UHGV virus genome: UHGV-0043381
DNA: 12,991 nucleotides
DNA from: a virus
Direction: 5' to 3' (one strand)
This document shows positions 50 through 12,941 of the stretch, one piece after another (within the stretch, counting starts at the first letter, position 1; every line of letters starts with the position of its first letter). Made by a program: the position numbers and the translations under genes. Under the pieces are notes generated by a model. The model did no database searches, was not told the DNA's origin, and saw only the letters and a program-made list of their open reading frames with translations.

Positions 50-634
50 CTATTCGATAATGGGTACTGTTGGCCATTCAATATCCGGTGCAGTTGTTGT
101 ATTAACACGGTTCAGCAACACCCGATATTTTTTCCAGGCTTCCAGCAATGAGGTTTCTTCCTCCGTTGCGATCTCCAGATCTACAGCATCCTGAAGTGGC
201 GCTATATGCTCACTGGCTACCTGCATCAGGCTGTTTTTTGTTTCTTCCGCCTCCCGGATCCGGAACAGTTTTTCTGCTTCCGTATCCTTCACCCAGGCTG
301 TGCCGTTCCACTTCTGATATTCCCCTTCCGGCGATAACCAGGTGACATTTTCCGGTAACGAGCCAAGTTCAGAAATAAATAACGCGTCGCCGGAAGCCAC
401 GTCATAGACGGTTTTTCCCCGATGATCTTCAACGAGATGCCACGATGCCTCATCACTGTTGAAAACAGCCACAAAGCCAGCCGGAATATCTGGCGGTGCA
501 ATATCGGTACTGTTTGCTGGCAGACCTGTATGAGGCGGAATATATGCGTCACCTTCACCAATAAATTCATTAGTTCCGGCCAGCAGATTATAAATTTTTA
601 TGGTCCGTGCTTGTTCACTCATTCTGAATGCCAT
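50..634 (-). CDS. tfa: Tail fiber assembly protein Tfa (lambda-type), 194 aa
   Basis: ORF-track protein [44 protein letters not shown]... matches my recollection of lambda Tfa along its whole length. ATG at 634-632 overlaps the TAA of the upstream frame (TAATG), as at lambda stf/tfa. Stop TAG at 52-50. Confidence 0.9.
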
Positions 635-2316
635 TATGCAAGCCTCACAATATAGTTAAATGCGATATTTTTGACGGTGTTTTCCGCGTTACCAGCAGCG
701 TTAACGGTGATGGTGTGTCCATGTGAGCCAATCGCAACCGAGTGCGTATGAGCACCAATATCCGTACCGATTTCGGTAAGGTAAACCCCGTTTTTGTTTC
801 GCTTACGTGGCATGCTGGCCACTGGCTTTCCGTAGACGGATGCCCCTTTAATGGGGATCACCCGGAACAGCCCATGTTTTTTCGAGCGTTCATACACAAT
901 GGTCGGGTCAATCCCGCCAGTATCCCAGCAGATACGGGATATCGACATTTCTGCACCATTCCGGCGGGTATAGGTTTTATTGATGGCCTCATCCACACGC
1001 AGCAGCGTCTGTTCATCGTCGTGGCGGCCCATAATAATCTGCCGGTCAATCAGCCAGCTTTCCTCACCCGGCCCCCATCCCCATACGCGCATTTCGTAGC
1101 GGTCCAGCTGGGAGTCGATACCGGCGGTCAGGTAAGCCACACGGTCAGGAACGGGCGCTGAATAATGCTCTTTCCGCTCCGCCATCACCTCAGCATCCGG
1201 ACGTTCGCCAATTTTCGCTTCCCATGTCTCACCGAGCGTGGTGTTCACGAAGGTTTTACGTTTTCCCGTATCCCCTTTCGTCTTCATCCAGTCTTTGACA
1301 ATCTGCACCCAGGTGGTGAACGGGCTGTACGCCGTCCAGATGTGAAAGGTCACACTGTCCGGCGGCTCAATCTCTTCACCGGATGACGAAAACCAGAGAA
1401 TGCCATCACGGGTCCAGATCCCGGTCTTTTCGCAGATATAACGGGCATCAGTAAAGTCCAGCTCCTGCTGGCGGATGACGCAGGCATTATGCTCGCAGAG
1501 ATAAAACACGCTGGAGGGGTCATCCGGCGTCCATTTGAGGCCAAACGGCGCCTCTTTGTCGCCAAATTTAAGATACTGCTCCTCCCCGCAGTGCGGGCAG
1601 GCAACATGAAAACGCATAAAATGCGGGGATTCACTGGCTGCACGCTCAATCTGGCAGGTGCCTCTCACTTTGGGCGTGGAGCCACGGATGGACTTTGGCC
1701 AGACCGAGCCTTCAATACGTTTGTCGCCAAGGAACGTCGGAGAGCCTTCCTGTTCAATATCCTCATCAAAGGCAGCAAGTTCATCATAACCCGCCACATC
1801 CACCGACTTTTCACGGTAGTTTTTTGCCGCTTTACCGCCCAGGCACCAGAAGCCACGACCATTGGAAAAACGCTTCATGGTGAGCGTGTTATCCCGGTGC
1901 TTTTTGCCATACCACGGAGCCAGCGCCAGCAGCGACGGAATATCGCGGATGGTCGGCTCAACGTGGGTTTTCATAAAGTTCTCGGCATCACCATCCGTCG
2001 GCAACCAGATAAGGGTGTTGCGCTGCTTATGCTCTATAAAGTAGGCATAAACACCCAGCAGCATTTTGGAATAACCGACACGGGCAGACTTCACCACATT
2101 CACCTCACGGATGTAGTCGCTGCCCATCGCATTCATGATGGCCCGCTGAAAGGGCAGTGTTTCCCAGCGCCCTTCCTGGTATGCGGATTCTTTTGGGAGA
2201 TAGTAATTGGCATCCGCCCATTCAACGGCGGTCTGTGGCTCCGGCCTGAACAGTGAGCGAAGCCCGGCGCGGACAAAATGCCGCAGCCTGTTAACCTGAC
2301 TGTTCGATATATTCAC
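634..2316 (-). pseudogene. A: Terminase large subunit gpA, C-terminally truncated (about 519 lambda-like codons) and fused in frame to about 41 unrelated codons, probably the 3' end of a side tail fiber gene
   Basis: Translation [56 protein letters not shown]... follows lambda gpA (641 aa in lambda) through ...[11 protein letters not shown], then diverges to [41 protein letters not shown] before the stop; joint near nt 759. Walker-A-like KSARVGYSK retained. GTG start at 2316 overlaps the nu1 3' end as in lambda. The frame ends exactly where tfa starts. Confidence 0.85.
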
Positions 2317-2836
2317 TCAGCAACCCCGGTATCAGTTCATCCAGCGCGGCTGCTTTGTTCATGGCTTTGATGATATCCCGTTTCAGGAAATCAACATGTC
2401 GGTTTTCCAGTTCCGGAAAACGCCGCTGCACCGACAGGGGGATCCCGTCGAGAATACTGGCAATTTCACCTGCGATCCGCGACAGCACGAAAGTACAGAA
2501 TGCGGTTTCCACCACTTCAGCGGAGTCTCTGGCATTTTTCAGCTCCTGTGCGTCGGCCTGCGCACGCGTAAGTCGATGGCGTTCGTACTCAATAGTCCCT
2601 GGCTGGAGATCTGTCTCGCTGGCCTGCCGCAGTTCTTCAACTTCCCGGCGCAGCTTTTCGTTCTCAATTTCAGCATCCCTTTCGGCATACCATTTTATGA
2701 CGGCGGCAGAGTCATAAAGCACCTCATTACCCTTGCCACCGCCTCGCAGAACGGGCATTCCCTGTTCCTGCCAGTTCTGAATGGTACGGATACTCGCACC
2801 GAAAATGTCAGCCAGCTGCTTTTTGTTGACTTCCAT
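2291..2836 (-). CDS. nu1: Terminase small subunit Nu1 (lambda-type), 181 aa
   Basis: Protein [71 protein letters not shown]... matches lambda Nu1 end to end; ATG at 2836-2834 sits immediately next to cosB. Confidence 0.93.
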
Positions 2837-3040
2837 TGTTCATTCCACGGACAAAAACAGAGAAAGGAAACGACAGAGGCCAAAAAGCTCGCTTTCAGCA
2901 CCTGTCGCTTCCTTTCTTTTCAGAGGGTATTTTAAATAAAAACATTAAGTTACGACGAAGAAGAACGGAAACGCCTTAAACCGGAAAATTTTCATAAATA
3001 GCGAAAACCCGCGAGGTCGCCGCCCCGTAACCTGTCGGAT
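2837..3040. other. cos site: cosB with Nu1-binding R3/R2/R1 elements (about 2850-2975), cosN 12-nt cohesive-end sequence at 3014-3025, cosQ-side flank to about 3040
   Basis: 3014-3025 aggtcgccgccc is the reverse complement of the lambda left cohesive end GGGCGGCGACCT and is followed by cgtaacctgt, the reverse complement of the lambda right terminus ACAGGTTACG. R-site-like motifs are visible as reverse complements (gagaaaggaaacg, cgcttcctttct, gaagaagaacggaaacg). Orientation is reverse-complement relative to the lambda map. Confidence 0.85.
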
Positions 3041-3224
3041 CGCCGGAAAGGACCCGCAAAATGATAATAATTATCATCTGCATGTCACAACGTGCATCTA
3101 CGCCATCAAACCACGTCAAATAATCAATTATGACGCAGGTATCATATTAATTGATCTGCATCAACTTAACGTAAAAACAACTTCAGACAATACAAATCAG
3201 CGACACTGAATACGGGACAACCTC

Positions 3225-3458
3225 ATGTCAACGAAGAACAGAACCCGCAGAACAACAACCCGCAACATCCGCTTTCCTAACCAAATGATTGAACAAATTA
3301 ACATCGCTCTTGATCAAAAAGGGTCCGGGAATTTCTCAGCCTGGGTCATTGAAGCCTGCCGCCGGAGACTGTGCTCAGAAAAAAGAGTTTCTCCTGAAGC
3401 AAACAAAGAAAAGAGTGACATTACTGAATTGCTCAGAAAACAGATCAGACCAGATTGA
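3225..3458 (+). CDS. Small basic hypothetical protein, 77 aa, possibly DNA-binding (ribbon-helix-helix-like N-terminus); cos-proximal, AT-rich
   Basis: ATG at 3225, uninterrupted to 3458. Arg/Thr-rich N-terminus MSTKNRTRRTTTRNIRFPNQMIEQINIALDQKG... resembles RHH/Arc-type regulators, judged by eye only. Weak SD. A similar small ORF sits near cos in DLP12-type prophages, from memory. Confidence 0.5.
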   Translation: MSTKNRTRRTTTRNIRFPNQMIEQINIALDQKGSGNFSAWVIEACRRRLCSEKRVSPEANKEKSDITELLRKQIRPD

Positions 3459-3517
3459 AGCAATTTAGATAATCGTGCAGACTACGCCTCCCCTCATATC
3501 ACATGGAAGGTTTATCT

Positions 3518-3928
3518 ATGGATCAGGTAGTCATTTTTAAACAAATATTTGATAAAGTTCGAAACGATTTAAACTATCAATGGTTTTATTCTGAGCTAAA
3601 ACGTCACAATGTCTCACATTACATTTACTATTTAGCCACAGAGAATGTTCATATTGTATTAAAAAATGATAATACAGTGTTATTAAAGGGCCTAAAAAAC
3701 ATTGTGTCTGTCAAATTTTCAAAGGATAGGCATCTTATAGAAACGACCTCTAATAAGCTGAAATCCAGAGAGATCACATTTCAGGAATACAGAAGAAACC
3801 TTGCTAAAGCAGGAGTTTTTCGGTGGGTTACAAATATCCACGAACAAAAAAGATATTACTATACCTTTGATAATTCATTACTCTTTACTGAAAACATACA
3901 GAGCACATCACAAATGTTTCCACACTAA
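3518..3928 (+). CDS. ybcV: DUF1398-family protein (YbcV/YdfO-like), 136 aa from the SD-supported ATG
   Basis: Protein [58 protein letters not shown]... matches my recollection of the K-12 DLP12 YbcV family. SD ggaagg lies 7 nt before the ATG at 3518; the ORF track extends to an upstream ATG at 3503, which lacks an SD. Strongly AT-rich relative to flanking phage genes. Confidence 0.65.
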
Positions 3929-4033
3929 ACCATAACGTCCGGTTTCTTCTACCCCTGCACCGGACTGGCTGACATGAAGAGCAACCCCGCGTTCAGTTGA
4001 CGCGTTAATAACCCGGTGTGCATCGTTTTTGAT

Positions 4034-4098
4034 TATTCCCGCACACTCACGCAGAAGGAATTCCCCGTCAGGCTACGGTCATGGTTAATGCGGGAATA
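4034..4098. repeat. Perfect 10-bp inverted repeat pair (tattcccgca ... tgcgggaata) flanking a 45-bp spacer, in the convergent gap between ybcV and rha
   Basis: Read directly: 4034-4043 and 4089-4098 are exact reverse complements; the spacer contains gaattc. No adjoining T-run in terminator orientation on either strand. Confidence 0.4.
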
Positions 4099-4230
4099 CG
4101 GCGACGATACAGCGCATGATGTGTCAGGCTTGAATACCTTTATCCGTTAAAAGGGATATCAGTTAAGTTATCCCGTGCAGGGTATAAGCCATTATCAAGC
4201 CCCCCGTAGATAGGCTTTGTAATGACATCT

Positions 4231-4755
4231 TCAATTAATCAGCAGTTCAGGCTGTGTCACCTGCAAGATGTATTCATGCTCGACAGCCAGGACACGCTTC
4301 TCTTTCTTCCGTTCGTTCATTAACCGACTGCCGATCGTACCTTTCAGCTTTGAGCGTGTTTCTTTGATGGCGTAGCGGTGCTGCATTTCTTCGCCAATTG
4401 CCATGCGGCGGCTCAGTTGTTCTGCCATCCAGTTGAATGCTGCGATATAGCTCTCCTTGATTGCCGCAGCAGCTTTCCCGGTGAACCCCATCACAACCAT
4501 GATCCAGCCATCTTTCGTCAGGCTGTACATCGGGCGAACCTTGCCCTGCTCATCGATATAATCAGCCGACGCAAAATTGCGTTGGCTAAACTCACGCGAG
4601 CAATCAGCCTTAACCTGCTCGATTTTCCTGAGAACATCACCGTGTCGCTTGCCGAAGTACTTGGCAATTTTTCTGGATGTGGTAACGACCTCTCCGTTTT
4701 TGGCTTGCACCATTTCTCGGAAGTCGAAGGCTGGAATAACTGAATGATTATTCAT
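4231..4755 (-). CDS. Rha-family phage regulatory protein (Phage_pRha-like), 175 aa from the first plausible ATG
   Basis: Motif ...EVVTTSRKIAKYFGKRHGDVLRKIEQ... near the N-terminus is typical of the phage Rha family as I remember it. The ORF-track frame extends upstream to 4998 through a non-ATG start; I place the start at ATG 4755-4753, preceded by aaagg. Confidence 0.65.
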   Translation of the reverse strand: MNNHSVIPAFDFREMVQAKNGEVVTTSRKIAKYFGKRHGDVLRKIEQVKADCSREFSQRNFASADYIDEQGKVRPMYSLTKDGWIMVVMGFTGKAAAAIKESYIAAFNWMAEQLSRRMAIGEEMQHRYAIKETRSKLKGTIGSRLMNERKKEKRVLAVEHEYILQVTQPELLIN

Positions 4756-4894
4756 AGCGTCTTTACCTTTTAGAAAGTGAGCCTGTCTCACAGAAAAGCC
4801 GCCCGAGAGAGGTCGCCACCTATAACGGCATTTCTCAGGCTCGCTTACTGAAAGGCTCTCGTTAATATGCGCGTGAGATGCGCTGTGAAATTCA

Positions 4895-6863: not shown

Positions 6864-7946
6864 ATGAAAAAATTAACAGTGGCAATTTCTGCTGTAGCTG
6901 CATCAGTACTGATGGCGATGTCTGCTCAGGCAGCTGAAATTTATAATAAAGACAGTAACAAGCTGGATCTGTACGGGAAAGTTAATGCTAAGCACTACTT
7001 CTCCTCTAATGATGCAGATGATGGTGATACTACTTATGCCCGTCTTGGCTTCAAAGGTGAAACCCAAATCAACGATCAACTGACTGGTTTCGGTCAGTGG
7101 GAATATGAATTCAAAGGCAACCGCGCTGAATCTCAAGGTTCCTCCAAAGACAAAACCCGTCTTGCATTTGCAGGCCTGAAATTCGGTGACTACGGCTCAA
7201 TCGATTACGGCCGTAACTACGGTGTAGCATACGACATCGGTGCGTGGACTGACGTTCTGCCAGAATTCGGTGGCGATACCTGGACCCAAACAGATGTATT
7301 CATGACTGGTCGCACCACAGGTGTTGCAACTTATCGTAACAACGACTTCTTTGGTCTGGTTGATGGCCTGAACTTTGCAGCTCAGTATCAGGGCAAAAAT
7401 GACCGAAATGAAGTAACTGAAGCTAATGGCGATGGTTTCGGTTTCTCAACTACTTATGAGTATGAAGGATTCGGCGTGGGTGCAACCTATGCTAAATCTG
7501 ATCGCACTAATAATCAGGTTATCTACGGTAACAACGGTCTGAATGCTTCTGGTCAAAATGCTGAAGTATGGGCAGCTGGTCTGAAATATGATGCGAACAA
7601 CATCTATCTGGCCACCACCTATTCTGAAACCCAGAACATGACTGTTTTTGGTAATAACCATATTGCCAACAAAGCACAAAACTTCGAAGCTGTTGCACAA
7701 TATCAGTTCGACTTCGGCCTGCGTCCATCCGTTGCTTACCTGCATTCTAAAGGAAAAGACTTGGGTGTTTGGGGTGATCAGGACCTGGTTGAATATGTTG
7801 ATGTAGGTGCAACCTATTACTTCAACAAAAATATGTCCACTTTTGTTGACTACAAAATCAACCTGATTGATAAGAGCGATTTCACGAAAGCATCTGGCGT
7901 TGCTACCGATGATATCGTTGCTGTAGGTATGGTTTACCAGTTCTAA
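6864..7946 (+). CDS. nmpC: Outer-membrane general porin of the OmpC/OmpF family (NmpC/OmpD-type), intact, 360 aa
   Basis: Signal peptide [23 protein letters not shown] followed by [24 protein letters not shown]... and C-terminal ...VGMVYQF (terminal Phe typical of OM beta-barrels); matches my recollection of the DLP12 NmpC family. Not IS-interrupted, unlike the K-12 copy. Confidence 0.92.
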
Positions 7947-8082: not shown

Positions 8083-8110
8083 GGGGGCGTTTCAACGCCC
8101 CATTTTTAAT
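8083..8110 (+). terminator. Intrinsic terminator for nmpC (GC stem gggggcg/cgcccc plus T-run)
   Basis: Stem 8083-8089 / 8096-8101 with loop tttcaa, followed by atttttaat on the plus strand. A T-run also precedes the stem, but the minus-strand 3' side is A-rich, so termination is mainly plus-strand. Confidence 0.55.
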
Positions 8111-8134: not shown

Positions 8135-8518
8135 TTAATTAGAGTTATTAACAACGATATCCATCTCTAACCGGATATCTAATGCCATTAACATCCCTTC
8201 AATTATGCCCTCAGCCTTCTGTAACCTTTTCCCGATATAACCATCAGAGCAGCAATGCTTACCTGCCAGTGACATGAATGTCATACCGACTACATAATAA
8301 TCTACTAATAAATCGTGCAAATCGCTGTTGTTCTTTTTCAGACGGGCCATGCACCCGCAAATGATCATAGCGTCATCGTCACAACATTGCGGGCGAGATT
8401 TTACTTTTGAAGTAATTAATCCCTTAAAACCGGCGGCAATGGACGACCAGGTCACATCTTCATGATTATTAGCCGCCCACGCTCCCCAACGCTCAAGAAC
8501 CATCTGAATATCACGCAT
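8135..8518 (-). CDS. Q: Late-gene antiterminator Q (phage 21/82-type, DLP12 QuuD-like), 127 aa
   Basis: [62 protein letters not shown]... matches my recollection of QuuD, with Cys-rich zinc-binding region. ATG at 8518-8516 has GGAG 7 nt upstream; the ORF-track start at 8533 is a TTG extension that I reject. Confidence 0.85.
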
Positions 8519-8603
8519 CAACTTACTCCACAAAAATCAGACCAGAACGCCAATTACAAGCAAAAATCAATAAAACAGTATTAGTTGATTGTTATCTCTG
8601 ACT

Positions 8604-8726
8604 TCATACTCCTGCTCCTGTCAGGGTTTTGGCGTAATTCCTCAGTATTCGGTAATCGGTCAAAACAGAACTGGGGAAACGATATAAGCGCAGGCGCATC
8701 CAGCGGTGGCGAAGAAGTTCTGCCAT
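8604..8726 (-). CDS. Small ORF (40 aa) between rusA and Q, in the position of DLP12 ylcG
   Basis: Hand translation of the minus strand from ATG 8726: MAELLRHRWMRLRLYRFPSSVLTDYRILRNYAKTLTGAGV, stop at 8606-8604. No convincing SD; homology not verified. Confidence 0.3.
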   Translation of the reverse strand: MAELLRHRWMRLRLYRFPSSVLTDYRILRNYAKTLTGAGV

Positions 8727-8740
8727 ATTAAACTCAAACA

Positions 8741-9103
8741 TCATTCATTCCCCATTTCGGTGATGGTCAGTTCCAGCCTCCCACCTTTGGTAACAGGCAT
8801 CTTCACAACGCGGTAATCAACGACCTGAGCATCATCCAGCCAGAAACCTGCTTTAGTGAGTGCGTCAAAAGCGGCTTTTTGCAGATTATCCAGGTCACGG
8901 CGACGGCGATCCGGCATGTGGCACTCAATGCGGATTTTCACAGGCATAGTCAGGCCGATATCCAGCATTGCGTTTTTAATGATTCGGGCGACGTTATCGC
9001 GGTATGCCTGCCCCTCTGCGCTGACGTGCGTGCGCCCGCGATTATGGCGGTAATAGCGATTATTACTCGGAGGCCAGGGTAATGTGATGCTGTAGGTATT
9101 CAC
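8741..9103 (-). CDS. rusA: Holliday junction resolvase RusA, 120 aa
   Basis: [51 protein letters not shown]...[44 protein letters not shown]... matches E. coli RusA; GTG start at 9103 preceded by aagg. Confidence 0.93.
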
Positions 9104-9132
9104 GCCTTAATAACCCCCTCTTTCAGCCAGAT
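9104..9132 (-). pseudogene. 3'-terminal remnant (about 10 codons, ...[10 protein letters not shown]-stop) of a ybcO-like nin-region gene, abutting the deletion joint
   Basis: The minus-strand frame ending at 9100 encodes ...[12 protein letters not shown], which matches my recollection of the YbcO C-terminus, and its stop overlaps the rusA start. Further upstream that frame is merely antisense to bet, so the 72-aa track ORF 9100..9318 is a chimera. Confidence 0.45.
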
Positions 9133-9666
9133 ATCATCAATGAAAACCAGCAGTTTGATGGCATGGACTTTGAGCAGGACAATGAATCCTGCACATGCCG
9201 GATTTACCGCAAAGACCGCAATCATCCGATCTGCGTTACCGAGTGGATGGATGAATGCCGCCGCGAACCATTCAAAACCCGCGAAGGCAGAGAAATCACG
9301 GGGCCGTGGCAGTCGCATCCCAAACGGATGTTACGGCATAAAGCCATGATTCAGTGTGCCCGTCTCGCCTTCGGATTTGCTGGTATCTATGACAAGGATG
9401 AAGCCGAGCGCATTGTCGAAAATACCGCATACACTGCAGAACGTCAGCCGGAACGCGACATCACTCCGGTTAACGATGAAACCATGCAGGAGATTAACAC
9501 TCTGCTGATTGCCCTGGATAAAACATGGGATGACGACTTATTGCCGCTCTGTTCCCAGATATTTCGCCGCGACATTCGCGCATCGTCAGAACTGACACAG
9601 GCCGAAGCAGTGAAAGCTCTTGGATTCCTGAAACAGAAAGCCACTGAGCAGAAGGTGGCTGCATGA
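9133..9666 (+). pseudogene. bet: Lambda Bet (Red-beta recombinase), 5'-truncated; roughly the N-terminal 85 codons missing
   Basis: From about 9133 the frame reads IINENQQFDGMDFEQDNESCTCRIYRKDRNHPICVTEWMDECRREPFKTREGREITGPW...KATEQKVAA, colinear with the C-terminal two thirds of lambda Bet (261 aa) as I recall it. Upstream of about 9130 similarity stops and the frame closes at TGA 9085-9087. No start or promoter context. Confidence 0.85.
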
Positions 9667-10343
9667 CACCGGACATTATCCTGCAGCGTACCGGAATCGA
9701 CGTGAGAGCTGTCGAACAGGGGGATGATGCGTGGCACAAATTACGGCTCGGCGTCATCACCGCTTCAGAAGTTCACAATGTGATAGCAAAACCCCGCTCC
9801 GGAAAAAAGTGGCCTGACATGAAAATGTCCTACTTCCACACCCTGCTGGCTGAGGTTTGCACCGGTGTGGCTCCGGAAGTTAATGCTAAGGCGCTGGCAT
9901 GGGGAAAACAGTACGAGAACGACGCCAGAACTCTGTTTGAATTCACTTCCGGCGTGAATGTTACTGAATCCCCGATCATCTATCGCGACGAAAGTATGCG
10001 TACCGCCTGCTCTCCCGATGGTTTATGCAGTGACGGCAATGGCCTTGAGCTGAAATGCCCGTTTACCTCCCGGGATTTCATGAAGTTCCGGCTCGGTGGT
10101 TTCGAGGCCATAAAGTCGGCTTACATGGCCCAGGTGCAGTACAGCATGTGGGTGACACGAAAAGATGCCTGGTACTTTGCCAACTATGACCCGCGTATGA
10201 AGCGTGAAGGCCTGCATTATGTCGTGGTTGAGCGGGATGAAAAGTACATGGCGAATTTTGACGAGATGGTGCCGGAGTTCATCGAAAAAATGGACGTGGC
10301 ACTGGCTGAAATTGGTTTTGTATTTGGGGAGCAATGGCGATGA
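9663..10343 (+). CDS. exo: Lambda exonuclease (Red-alpha, Exo), intact, 226 aa
   Basis: [94 protein letters not shown]... matches lambda Exo at full length; ATG overlaps the bet stop (ATGA). Confidence 0.93.
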
Positions 10344-10750
10344 CGCATCCTCACGATAATATCCGGGTAGGCGCGATCACTTTCATCTACTCCGTTACCG
10401 TCACCGAGGCGTTAGAACTTGATACTGCCAAGAATGGTTACATCCTCCTGGTTCAGGACGCAGAGCCAAACTTCGATATAAATGGCAACTCTCCGGTAAC
10501 TCCGGATGGTTGGGTTATAGTGCCGAAGAAACTAACCGCTGAGAACGGCGCTAAGGGTGTGCTATCCGGTGAATTTTCAGAAACTACGTTTATAAGCTGC
10601 CCGGAATGCTTTGGTGATGATGATTGCGAAACTTGTGACGGCAGCGGAAGAATCGAAATCAAGGTTCCAGTCAGTTGGACAACTATCAAAACTATTTGGG
10701 CTAAAGGGTGTGAGTACTTTTCAATAGTAGCACCGCAGCAAGATGGGTGA
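10334..10750 (+). CDS. Hypothetical protein, 138 aa, with C-terminal CxxC-x5-CxxCxGxG zinc-ribbon-like motif; translationally coupled to exo
   Basis: ATG at 10334 preceded by gggga and overlapping the exo 3' end by 10 nt. Motif ...[21 protein letters not shown]..., where CxxCxGxG is the DnaJ cysteine-rich repeat signature. The N-terminus [19 protein letters not shown] may resemble the start of a lambda exo-adjacent small ORF, but I cannot confirm it. Confidence 0.6.
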
Positions 10751-11674: not shown

Positions 11675-11893
11675 ATGTACTTGACACTTCAGGAGTGGAA
11701 CGCTCGCCAGCGACGCCCAAGAAGCCTTGAAACAGTTCGTCGATGGGTGCGCGAATGCAGGATATTCCCTCCTCCGGTTAAGGATGGAAGAGAATATCTG
11801 TTCCACGAATCAGCGGTAAAGGTTGACTTAAATCGACCAGTAACAGGTAGCCTTTTGAAGAGGATCAGAAATGGGAAGAAGGCGAAGTCATGA
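11675..11893 (+). CDS. xis: Excisionase Xis (lambda), 72 aa
   Basis: MYLTLQEWNARQRRPRSLETVRRWVRECRIFPPPVKDGREYLFHESAVKVDLNRPVTGSLLKRIRNGKKAKS is essentially lambda Xis; SD ggag 8 nt upstream; 3' end overlaps int as in lambda. Confidence 0.93.
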   Translation: MYLTLQEWNARQRRPRSLETVRRWVRECRIFPPPVKDGREYLFHESAVKVDLNRPVTGSLLKRIRNGKKAKS

Positions 11894-12941
11894 GCGCCGG
11901 GATTTACCCCCTAACCTTTATATAAGAAACAATGGATATTACTGCTACAGGGACCCAAGGACGGGTAAAGAGTTTGGATTAGGCCGAGACAGGCGAATCG
12001 CAATCACTGAAGCTATACAGGCCAACATTGAGTTATTTTCAGGACACAAACACAAGCCTCTGACAGCGAGAATCAACAGTGATAATTCCGTTACGTTACA
12101 TTCATGGCTTGATCGCTACGAAAAAATCCTGGCCAGCAGAGGAATCAAGCAGAAGACACTCATAAATTACATGAGCAAAATTAAAGCAATAAGGAGGGGT
12201 CTGCCTGATGCTCCACTTGAAGACATCACCACAAAAGAAATTGCGGCAATGCTCAATGGATACATAGACGAGGGCAAGGCGGCGTCAGCCAAGTTAATCA
12301 GATCAACACTGAGCGATGCATTCCGAGAGGCAATAGCTGAAGGCCATATAACAACAAACCCTGTCGCTGCCACTCGCGCAGCAAAATCAGAGGTAAGGAG
12401 ATCAAGACTTACGGCTGACGAATACCTGAAAATTTATCAAGCAGCAGAATCATCACCATGTTGGCTCAGACTTGCAATGGAACTGGCTGTTGTTACCGGG
12501 CAACGAGTTGGTGATTTATGCGAAATGAAGTGGTCTGATATCGTAGATGGATATCTTTATGTCGAGCAAAGCAAAACAGGCGTAAAAATTGCCATCCCAA
12601 CAGCATTGCATGTTGATGCCCTCGGAATATCAATGAAGGAAACACTTGATAAATGCAAAGAGATTCTTGGCGGAGAAACCATAATTGCATCTACTCGTCG
12701 CGAACCGCTTTCATCCGGCACAGTATCAAGGTATTTTATGCGCGCACGAAAAGCATCAGGTCTTTCCTTCGAAGGGGATCCGCCTACCTTTCACGAGTTG
12801 CGCAGTTTGTCTGCAAGACTCTATGAGAAGCAGATAAGCGATAAGTTTGCTCAACATCTTCTCGGGCATAAGTCGGACACCATGGCATCACAGTATCGTG
12901 ATGACAGAGGCAGGGAGTGGGACAAAATTGAAATCAAATAA
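11871..12941 (+). CDS. int: Tyrosine integrase Int (lambda), 356 aa
   Basis: MGRRRSHERRDLPPNLYIRNNGYYCYRDPRTGKEFGLGRDRRIAITEAIQANIELFSGHKHKPLTARINSDNS...HELRSLSARLYEKQISDKFAQHLLGHKSDTMASQYRDDRGREWDKIEIK matches lambda Int at full length, including the catalytic-region motifs. Confidence 0.95.
   Translation: MGRRRSHERRDLPPNLYIRNNGYYCYRDPRTGKEFGLGRDRRIAITEAIQANIELFSGHKHKPLTARINSDNSVTLHSWLDRYEKILASRGIKQKTLINYMSKIKAIRRGLPDAPLEDITTKEIAAMLNGYIDEGKAASAKLIRSTLSDAFREAIAEGHITTNPVAATRAAKSEVRRSRLTADEYLKIYQAAESSPCWLRLAMELAVVTGQRVGDLCEMKWSDIVDGYLYVEQSKTGVKIAIPTALHVDALGISMKETLDKCKEILGGETIIASTRREPLSSGTVSRYFMRARKASGLSFEGDPPTFHELRSLSARLYEKQISDKFAQHLLGHKSDTMASQYRDDRGREWDKIEIK

Follow-up and report, generated by a model that had tools for sequence, protein, structure and literature searches.

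The abrupt start of bet homology in the lambdoid prophage of the virus genome UHGV-0043381 is very probably a scar of prophage decay, left at att-lambda by a RecA-independent illegitimate deletion and apparently neutral for the host. It is a fresh instance of a well-known type of scar and represents an ordinary stage of decay, not a new system. The window, i.e. the whole stretch of 12,991 nt analysed here, is essentially one entire defective lambdoid prophage, a remnant of about 13 kb as judged from the list of open reading frames (ORFs), the Pfam scan and the gene calls.

In the proposed course of events, a lambda-like prophage at att-lambda (from ybhB and the adjoining GGDEF gene to ybhC) would have lost its central region between two ends sharing only TA, from inside an already truncated stub of the nin-region gene ybcO to codon 85 of bet. 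Since the genes on both sides retain their native order and orientation, a simple deletion suffices. The loss would amount to 7.7 kb if it took place in one step from a complete prophage and to 2.6 kb if the immunity region had been deleted previously, and would have taken pL, pR, cI, N, O, P, kil and gam. The removal of these would leave Q, the lysis genes, rusA and bet'-exo without a known promoter and the element locked in the chromosome. Loss of the whole centre was presumably tolerated, unlike loss of cI alone, because Q, the lysis genes and rusA were also deprived of their normal promoter. The intact state of exo would follow from the position of the breakpoint upstream of it and from the short time available for decay. 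The joint alone matters little, being one more dated step in lambdoid prophage decay, and the intact gene beside the scar is no evidence of domestication.

Gene content and chromosomal site of the remnant

The ORF list, the Pfam matches and the gene calls give the following organisation. A tail-fibre assembly gene (50-634, minus strand) is followed by an ORF of 560 aa (634-2316) in which most of the terminase gpA is fused to the C-terminus of a tail fibre. Nu1/nohD, DUF3950, DUF1398 and a Rha-family regulator come next, in this order from left to right, with Rz, lysozyme and holin genes to the right of the regulator. An intact OmpC/NmpC-like porin gene (6864-7946, plus strand) precedes quuD, ylcG and rusA (8741-9103, minus strand), which lie between the porin and the joint. 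An ORF of 138 aa with a DUF1317 N-terminus (10334-10750) is found to the right of exo, and lambda-type xis and int (11675-12941; int 11871-12941) occupy the right end. No repressor, cro, N, O or P was found among the window ORFs or in the Pfam listing; cI/cro, N and O/P are all present in the complete att-lambda prophage of strain WP8-S18-CRE-02 (L017). The missing head and tail genes, marked by the terminase-A::tail-fibre fusion at 634-2316, together with the missing replication genes, would make the production of phage particles impossible.

The gpA part of the fused ORF comprises the ATPase and most of the nuclease domain, with the fusion joint near 759-764, and the head and tail genes between gpA and the tail-fibre C-terminus are all deleted; three related loci (L002, L003 and L027) carry other joints within the same interval. 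The porin (360 aa) is located between the lysis genes and quuD on the strand opposite to theirs, with a strong terminator-like hairpin at 8084-8101 on its 3' side, and is the most plausible candidate for host-useful cargo in the remnant.

Incomplete prophages preferentially lose replication, packaging and lysis functions and retain integrase and tail-fibre genes (PMC7744054). Compared with such general surveys (PMC7744054), the window likewise keeps the tail-fibre assembly and integrase ends, but its lysis genes are retained too.

In near-identical public loci the element lies between the GGDEF gene next to ybhB and ybhC, a position that corresponds to att-lambda and not to argU. Thus, in L010, which is 5 SNPs from the window, the GGDEF gene flanks it on the ybhB side and ybhC on the other. 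In both order and orientation the arrangement matches L017, with rusA-ybcO' on the minus and bet-exo-xis-int on the plus strand.

The deletion joint at base resolution

Window positions 9133-10398 align with phage lambda without gaps and with 97.2% identity over 1,266 nt, beginning at nt 253 of bet, where codon 85 starts (IINENQQ...). Identity rises to 99.5-100% with the best-matching E. coli bet alleles, to which the match begins at 9132. On the other side, positions 9100-9133, read as the reverse complement, agree at every base with the final 34 nt of K-12 ybcO (...WLKEGVIKA, stop). The rusA-side homology extends over 1-8 kb at 98-99.9% identity and ends at 9133 in every relative examined. 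Matches of this length and near-identity are not due to chance. The distance from the rusA start to the first base of bet is 30 nt. The sequence-only reading of this DNA had placed the breakpoint at about 9133, near residue 85 of Bet and 30 bp from the start of rusA on the opposite strand, with the C-terminus of a ybcO-like gene in between, and the alignments bear out all these assignments.

rusA (8741-9103, minus strand) is an intact gene for a Holliday-junction resolvase of 120 aa, as indicated by the ORF list and by a Pfam match covering RusA positions 1-123 of 124 (E 2.6e-23), i.e. a complete domain, and it is annotated as rusA by RefSeq in relatives 99.9-100% identical. The adjacent 3' stub of ybcO (DUF1364; 9100-9133, minus strand) consists of 34 nt, comprising 10 terminal codons, the stop codon and a single additional base, and its TGA overlaps the GTG start of rusA at 9103. 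Next to ninX, ybcO is found as a stub of 84-90 nt in L002, L003, F247 (L006), the complete prophage L017 and L029, while other att-lambda prophages (L001 and L030) have it at full length. As the gene was already a stub in the former, the event trimmed about 90 nt to 34 nt and cut no intact gene. The earlier suggestion that the deletion had cut a ybcO-like gene is therefore to be revised, the 84-90-nt stub being already present in the closest att-lambda relatives and in the complete L017.

A three-way alignment with L017 places the deletion joint at 9132-9133, on a TA common to both parental sequences. The parental sites in L017 read ...CCAGA[TA]ACCTG on the ybcO side and ...TCCCG[TA]TCATC on the bet side, and the window reads ...CCAGA[TA]TCATC. 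As TA is shared by both parents, the crossover can be placed no more finely than these two positions. The microhomology amounts to 2 nt relative to L017 and to 1 nt (A) relative to lambda itself, which answers the search for microhomology proposed in the earlier reading. No longer homology or repeats were found at the parental breakpoints, the 40 nt on either side agreeing in register at 23 of 80 positions, as expected by chance. By our own calculation, about 16% of random joints would show an overlap of 2 nt, P(k) = (k+1)(1/4)^k(3/4)^2. Sharing of only 1-2 nt by the parents points to illegitimate recombination, and RecA-independent joining would fit this lack of homology, from which the mechanism is deduced.

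An adjacent deletion mediated by an insertion sequence was considered and rejected, as no IS sequence is present at or near the joint, unlike in ECC-1470, L007/L009 and L029. The joint has also created a chimeric ORF of 72 aa (9100-9318, minus strand), in which antisense bet is fused in frame to the last ybcO codons. Its stop overlaps the rusA start and, if transcribed, it could couple translation into rusA; it is probably a chance ORF.

Occurrence of the joint in other genomes

Exact-protein look-ups of the 167-aa Bet' ORF (see below) and of Exo were used to locate carriers of the joint, which was represented by the k-mer TTCAGCCAGATATCATCAATGAAA. This 24-mer occurs in ten loci from nine NCBI E. 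coli draft assemblies (GCA_964206315.1, GCA_054663655.1, GCA_966514285.1, GCA_030370785.1, GCA_049547665.1, GCA_053745695.1, GCA_003470965.1, GCA_024396195.1 and GCA_016666065.1), all of which belong to this defective prophage, at att-lambda wherever the flanks are visible. It is absent from the 5,426 complete E. coli genomes of RefSeq, among which there is also no contiguous match spanning the joint; MLI110 and MB06021 gave the only matches with 80% coverage, in two pieces about 550 nt apart with ybcO-ninE-ybcN' between them. Exact-match scans for the 24-mer in the GTDB representatives (one genome per species) and in JGI metagenome contigs returned nothing. Over lengths of up to 13 kb, 0-6 SNPs separate the carriers from the window, and no differences in bet'-exo were observed in three of them compared base by base. 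The joint genuinely belongs to one group of closely related strains, and its 24-mer is a clean lineage marker for the clone.

It is scarcely credible that the joint arose as an error of assembly or by recombination between two different prophages, i.e. a chromosomal rearrangement, and not as a deletion within one prophage. Several lambdoid prophages coexist in E. coli genomes, and their rusA and bet modules are nearly identical (8,242 places in 3,807 genomes); repeats of this kind can mislead assemblers. The surroundings of the MLI110 prophage also look rearranged, elaD-IS5-quuD flanking it to one side and int-ybhC to the other. However, the identical joint is shared by nine independent assemblies, including one contig of 4.6 Mb, so an artefact is not the explanation. 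The flanks in L010 are those normal for att-lambda (GGDEF on the left, ybhC-ybhJ on the right), L021 has the same flanking neighbours, though the end of the locus cuts ybhJ, and the order and orientation on either side fit a single prophage. The survey of other genomes proposed in the sequence-only reading has thus yielded nine positive assemblies, and the possibility of an artefact raised there is answered by the same data.

Relationship to known prophages with similar joints

DLP12 of K-12 carries a quuD-ylcG-rusA-ybcO module 98.8% identical to that of the window. Its P'::exoD' joint, like that of the window, brings a pR-operon remnant head to head with a pL-operon remnant after loss of immunity, and DLP12 likewise has no repressor and a rusA without its natural promoter. 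The differences lie in the site (argU with IntD, as against att-lambda with lambda Int), in the breakpoints, which in DLP12 fall inside P and exo (from window position 10064, annotated with 279 nt) so that exo is a pseudogene and bet is gone, and in the gene content, DLP12 having kept full ybcO, ninE and ybcN and gained emrE, ybcK and IS3.

Parallels are also provided by the MS 124-1 type (ren'::bet'; 13937-14505 of L030) and MLI110 (ybcN'::bet'; 9654-10314 of L001). Like the window, both are at att-lambda with a lambda-type int, both have an N-truncated bet followed by an intact exo of 226 aa, and both have their immunity and replication regions deleted. The breakpoints are independent, being at bet codon 114 (joined to ren) in the MS 124-1 type, at codon 119 (joined to ybcN) in MLI110 and at codon 85 (joined to the ybcO stub) in the window, and ybcO is of full length in the first two, unlike the stub in the window. 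As their bet breakpoints are 16 nt apart, MLI110 may derive from the MS 124-1 type through a second deletion.

A further kind of truncation was seen in L007 and L009 (8814-10504), where an IS3-family element abuts bet at the equivalent of window position 9162 and leaves a 167-aa Bet' and an intact exo. That locus is at a different chromosomal site, adjoining an omptin gene.

One deletion or two

L017 has the order rusA-ybcO'(90 nt)-ninX-ninE-methyltransferase-ninB-ren-P-O-cII-cro-cI-...-sieB-DUF2528-cIII-kil-gam-bet-exo-...-xis-int-ybhC, and a single loss of about 7.7 kb from such a complete parent yields the joint. In F247, also at att-lambda, a truncated methyltransferase gene is joined to DUF2528, immunity and replication having been lost, and ninX-ninE and cIII-kil-gam-bet-exo are kept; removal of about 2.6 kb from a state of this kind is enough. 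Neither a direct ancestor with the same flanks and an intact early region nor an intermediate with identical flanks was found, L017 being the best complete relative. Identity to the window is only 94% for L017 on the rusA side and 97-99% for F247.

Accordingly, a two-step nested decay, in which an earlier deletion of immunity and replication (F247-like mtase'::DUF2528) was followed by one of about 2.6 kb across it, may be entertained as a tentative variant of the main explanation; it is no alternative to decay. The second deletion would take with it the first joint, ninX, ninE, cIII, kil, gam and the 5' part of bet. F247 carries just such an intermediate at the same att site and with the same 90-nt ybcO stub, and the lineage demonstrably went on deleting later. 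In MLI110 the ybcN'::bet' joint is 16 nt (about 5 codons) deeper in bet than the ren'::bet' joint of MS 124-1 (window 9236 versus 9220), a spacing as expected from a second deletion spanning an older joint. Against this, F247, at only 97-99% identity, is no direct ancestor, and the closest relatives, L002 and L003 (99.9-100%), are uninformative, the interval in question being covered by deletions of their own. A viable loss of cI would, moreover, have to drop the pL and pR functions simultaneously, for which a single large deletion would be simplest. As the deletion erased the informative interval, a single event cannot be confirmed. Thus, of the earlier statement that one deletion removed the region from the 5' part of bet to the nin region, the loss of the early region stands and the single event is not established, both the 7.7 kb (L017) and the 2.6 kb (F247) routes leading to the same joint.

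The truncated bet gene, exo and their transcription

The bet' remnant (9133-9666, plus strand) comprises codons 85-261 and the stop, the first 84 codons being missing in the alignment to lambda bet. It differs from lambda bet by one amino acid and 12 synonymous codons, 176 of 177 residues being identical to Bet residues 85-261. In the PDB it matches residues 85-178 of the annealing-domain structure of Red-beta 1-177 (7ujl) and the C-terminal domain (8tfu, 6m9k). The longest ORF with a start codon inside bet', as found in the ORF list, encodes 167 aa (9163-9666, plus strand) from the ATG at 9163, which corresponds to Met95 of Bet and is the only in-frame start in bet'. This ORF matches Pfam RecT only at profile positions 116-195 of 198 and is called as a gene in public assemblies; the sequence upstream of its ATG, CAGCAGTTTGATGGC, contains no GGAG-like motif that could serve as a ribosome-binding site.

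The N-terminal domain of Red-beta binds DNA and its C-terminal domain binds Exo and the host SSB (PMC11611040). Lacking 84 residues of the annealing domain, Bet' cannot be a recombinase, and there is hardly any doubt that its annealing activity is lost; the fragment, if translated, might in principle retain binding to Exo or SSB.

exo (9663-10343, plus strand) is an intact gene for lambda exonuclease of 226 aa, identified from the ORF list and the Pfam YqaJ domain (positions 2-149 of 150, E 4.6e-30). The protein has five substitutions relative to lambda Exo (221 of 226 identical), and the ATG of exo, which overlaps the stop codon of bet, has AAGGTGG ahead of it. The view that bet is N-terminally truncated and exo intact is upheld, Bet residues 1-84 being absent beside a full Exo of 226 aa. 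In relation to the lambda Red module (gam-bet-exo under pL), Exo and Bet 85-261 are near-identical in the window, which lacks gam, the pL/N control and, in the absence of residues 1-84, a full Bet. Without a full Bet, gam and pL, the window has no Red recombination system.

A consensus scan of the plus strand found no promoter-like site from 8299 to 9663. A 10/12 match (8269-8298, plus strand) lies upstream, inside quuD on its antisense strand, with no predicted terminator between it and bet'-exo; the scan gave 5 hits in total against a mean of 5.0 in shuffled sequence. With pL and N deleted from the remnant, the expression of Red through pL and N antitermination fails, and on the strength of the promoter scan bet'-exo appears to be transcriptionally silent. 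The ORF and Pfam listings, the RefSeq annotation of relatives 99.9-100% identical and the promoter scan agree with the sequence-only reading in finding no repressor, no N and no obvious promoter for bet'-exo. The possibility that the joint had given rusA or exo a new promoter was also considered and rejected, as no such site reaches the scan threshold.

In the otherwise complete prophage L008 (9719-10504), bet is split into ORFs of 90 aa and 167 aa, which implies a point-type disruption near codon 91. Splits of this type account for the 167-aa ORF being so common in the protein index (564 blocks).

Is exo maintained by selection?

Exo, possibly together with the Bet C-terminal domain that binds Exo and SSB, might be selected for a host function that does not require Bet, such as the processing of DNA ends or protection from incoming DNA, but this is very unlikely. 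Exo is of full length in all carriers of the joint, including three found through Bet' and not through Exo, and is intact in three other independently bet-truncated prophages, and Bet' keeps the whole C-terminal domain, which has been crystallised with Exo in 6m9k (PMC11611040). However, the carriers are at most 6 SNPs apart, with no bet'-exo differences in the three compared at every base, and the seven complete genomes of the ren'::bet' clade show 99.9-100% identity. Both groups are too uniform for dN/dS to be estimated, leaving no power to detect selection, and in carriers so nearly clonal an intact exo says nothing about it. The identical Exo protein is also present beside a full-length Bet of 261 aa in the intact prophages L018, L020 and L024, so the allele bears no lineage-specific change.

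Equal-length probes of 252 nt in the 5,426 genomes matched the bet 5' end in 4,344 places, the bet 3' end in 4,576 and the exo 5' end in 4,849. Retention thus climbs steadily towards int, as the geometry of deletion alone predicts if losses extend from the centre outwards. The counts were rejected as proof of exo retention, the rise being monotonic and confounded by allele divergence and mosaic partners. Further points against selection are that DLP12 of K-12 keeps only the last 279 nt of exo, that L002, L003 and L029 are without exo entirely, that there is no promoter-like site nearby and that the 167-aa ORF is without a recognisable ribosome-binding site.

Exo is intact in four independent bet-truncated lineages, namely the window type, the MS 124-1 type, MLI110 and the IS3-family-truncated L007/L009. 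This could hint at retention, but the sample is biased as it was found with bet' and exo queries. A more specific proposal is that the host has recruited Exo, perhaps complexed with a translation product of bet' that keeps the C-terminal domain for Exo and SSB binding, as an independent module of 5'-3' exonuclease activity. This is marginally more doubtful still; if true, it would explain the intact exo in several independently bet-truncated prophages. The sequence-only reading had offered either a very recent remnant or a Bet-independent role for exo. The recent remnant is the better of the two, though the joint predates at least two further deletions in the lineage, and no evidence was obtained for a Bet-independent role.

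Deletion states and the order of events

The joint is present in L022 and L027 together with about 2.3 kb on the 3' side of exo (DUF1317, DUF1382, TraR, Ea22 and others) that is absent from the window. In the window a second deletion joint is found just after exo (10387-10398), between imperfect 12-nt direct repeats, CTACTCCGTTAC and CTATTTCGGTAC, that match at 9 of 12 positions with 3 nt exact. This loss made the 138-aa ORF at 10334-10750, of which about the first 20 residues are DUF1317. L021 carries the joint and a further left-hand deletion, in which window positions 784-4845 are lost, and L027 has left-hand losses of its own. The retention of the 2.3 kb in L022 and L027 and the loss of 784-4845 in L021 indicate that the bet'::ybcO' joint came first and that at least two deletions followed it.

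Seven joint carriers were compared over 3 kb of chromosomal flank. Six of them show 0-1 SNP, as do L002 and L003, and the remaining carrier, L026, has an indel there. The prophage parts of L002 (20AR0354) and L003 (ET881) are 99.9-100% identical to the window and end in other scars. In L002, ninE' is joined to the ea region and bet-exo is gone altogether, and in L003 the scar runs from just past the ybcO stub into int. Since these two share the flank and differ in their scars, the common ancestor must have been much more complete. Within this near-clonal group (L002, L003, L021 and L027 against the window, 0-1 SNP per 3 kb of flank), at least five deletion states of one att-lambda prophage are thus represented. 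Deletion has therefore been faster than point mutation in this clone, and the group provides a worked example of prophage decay proceeding much faster by deletion than by point substitution.
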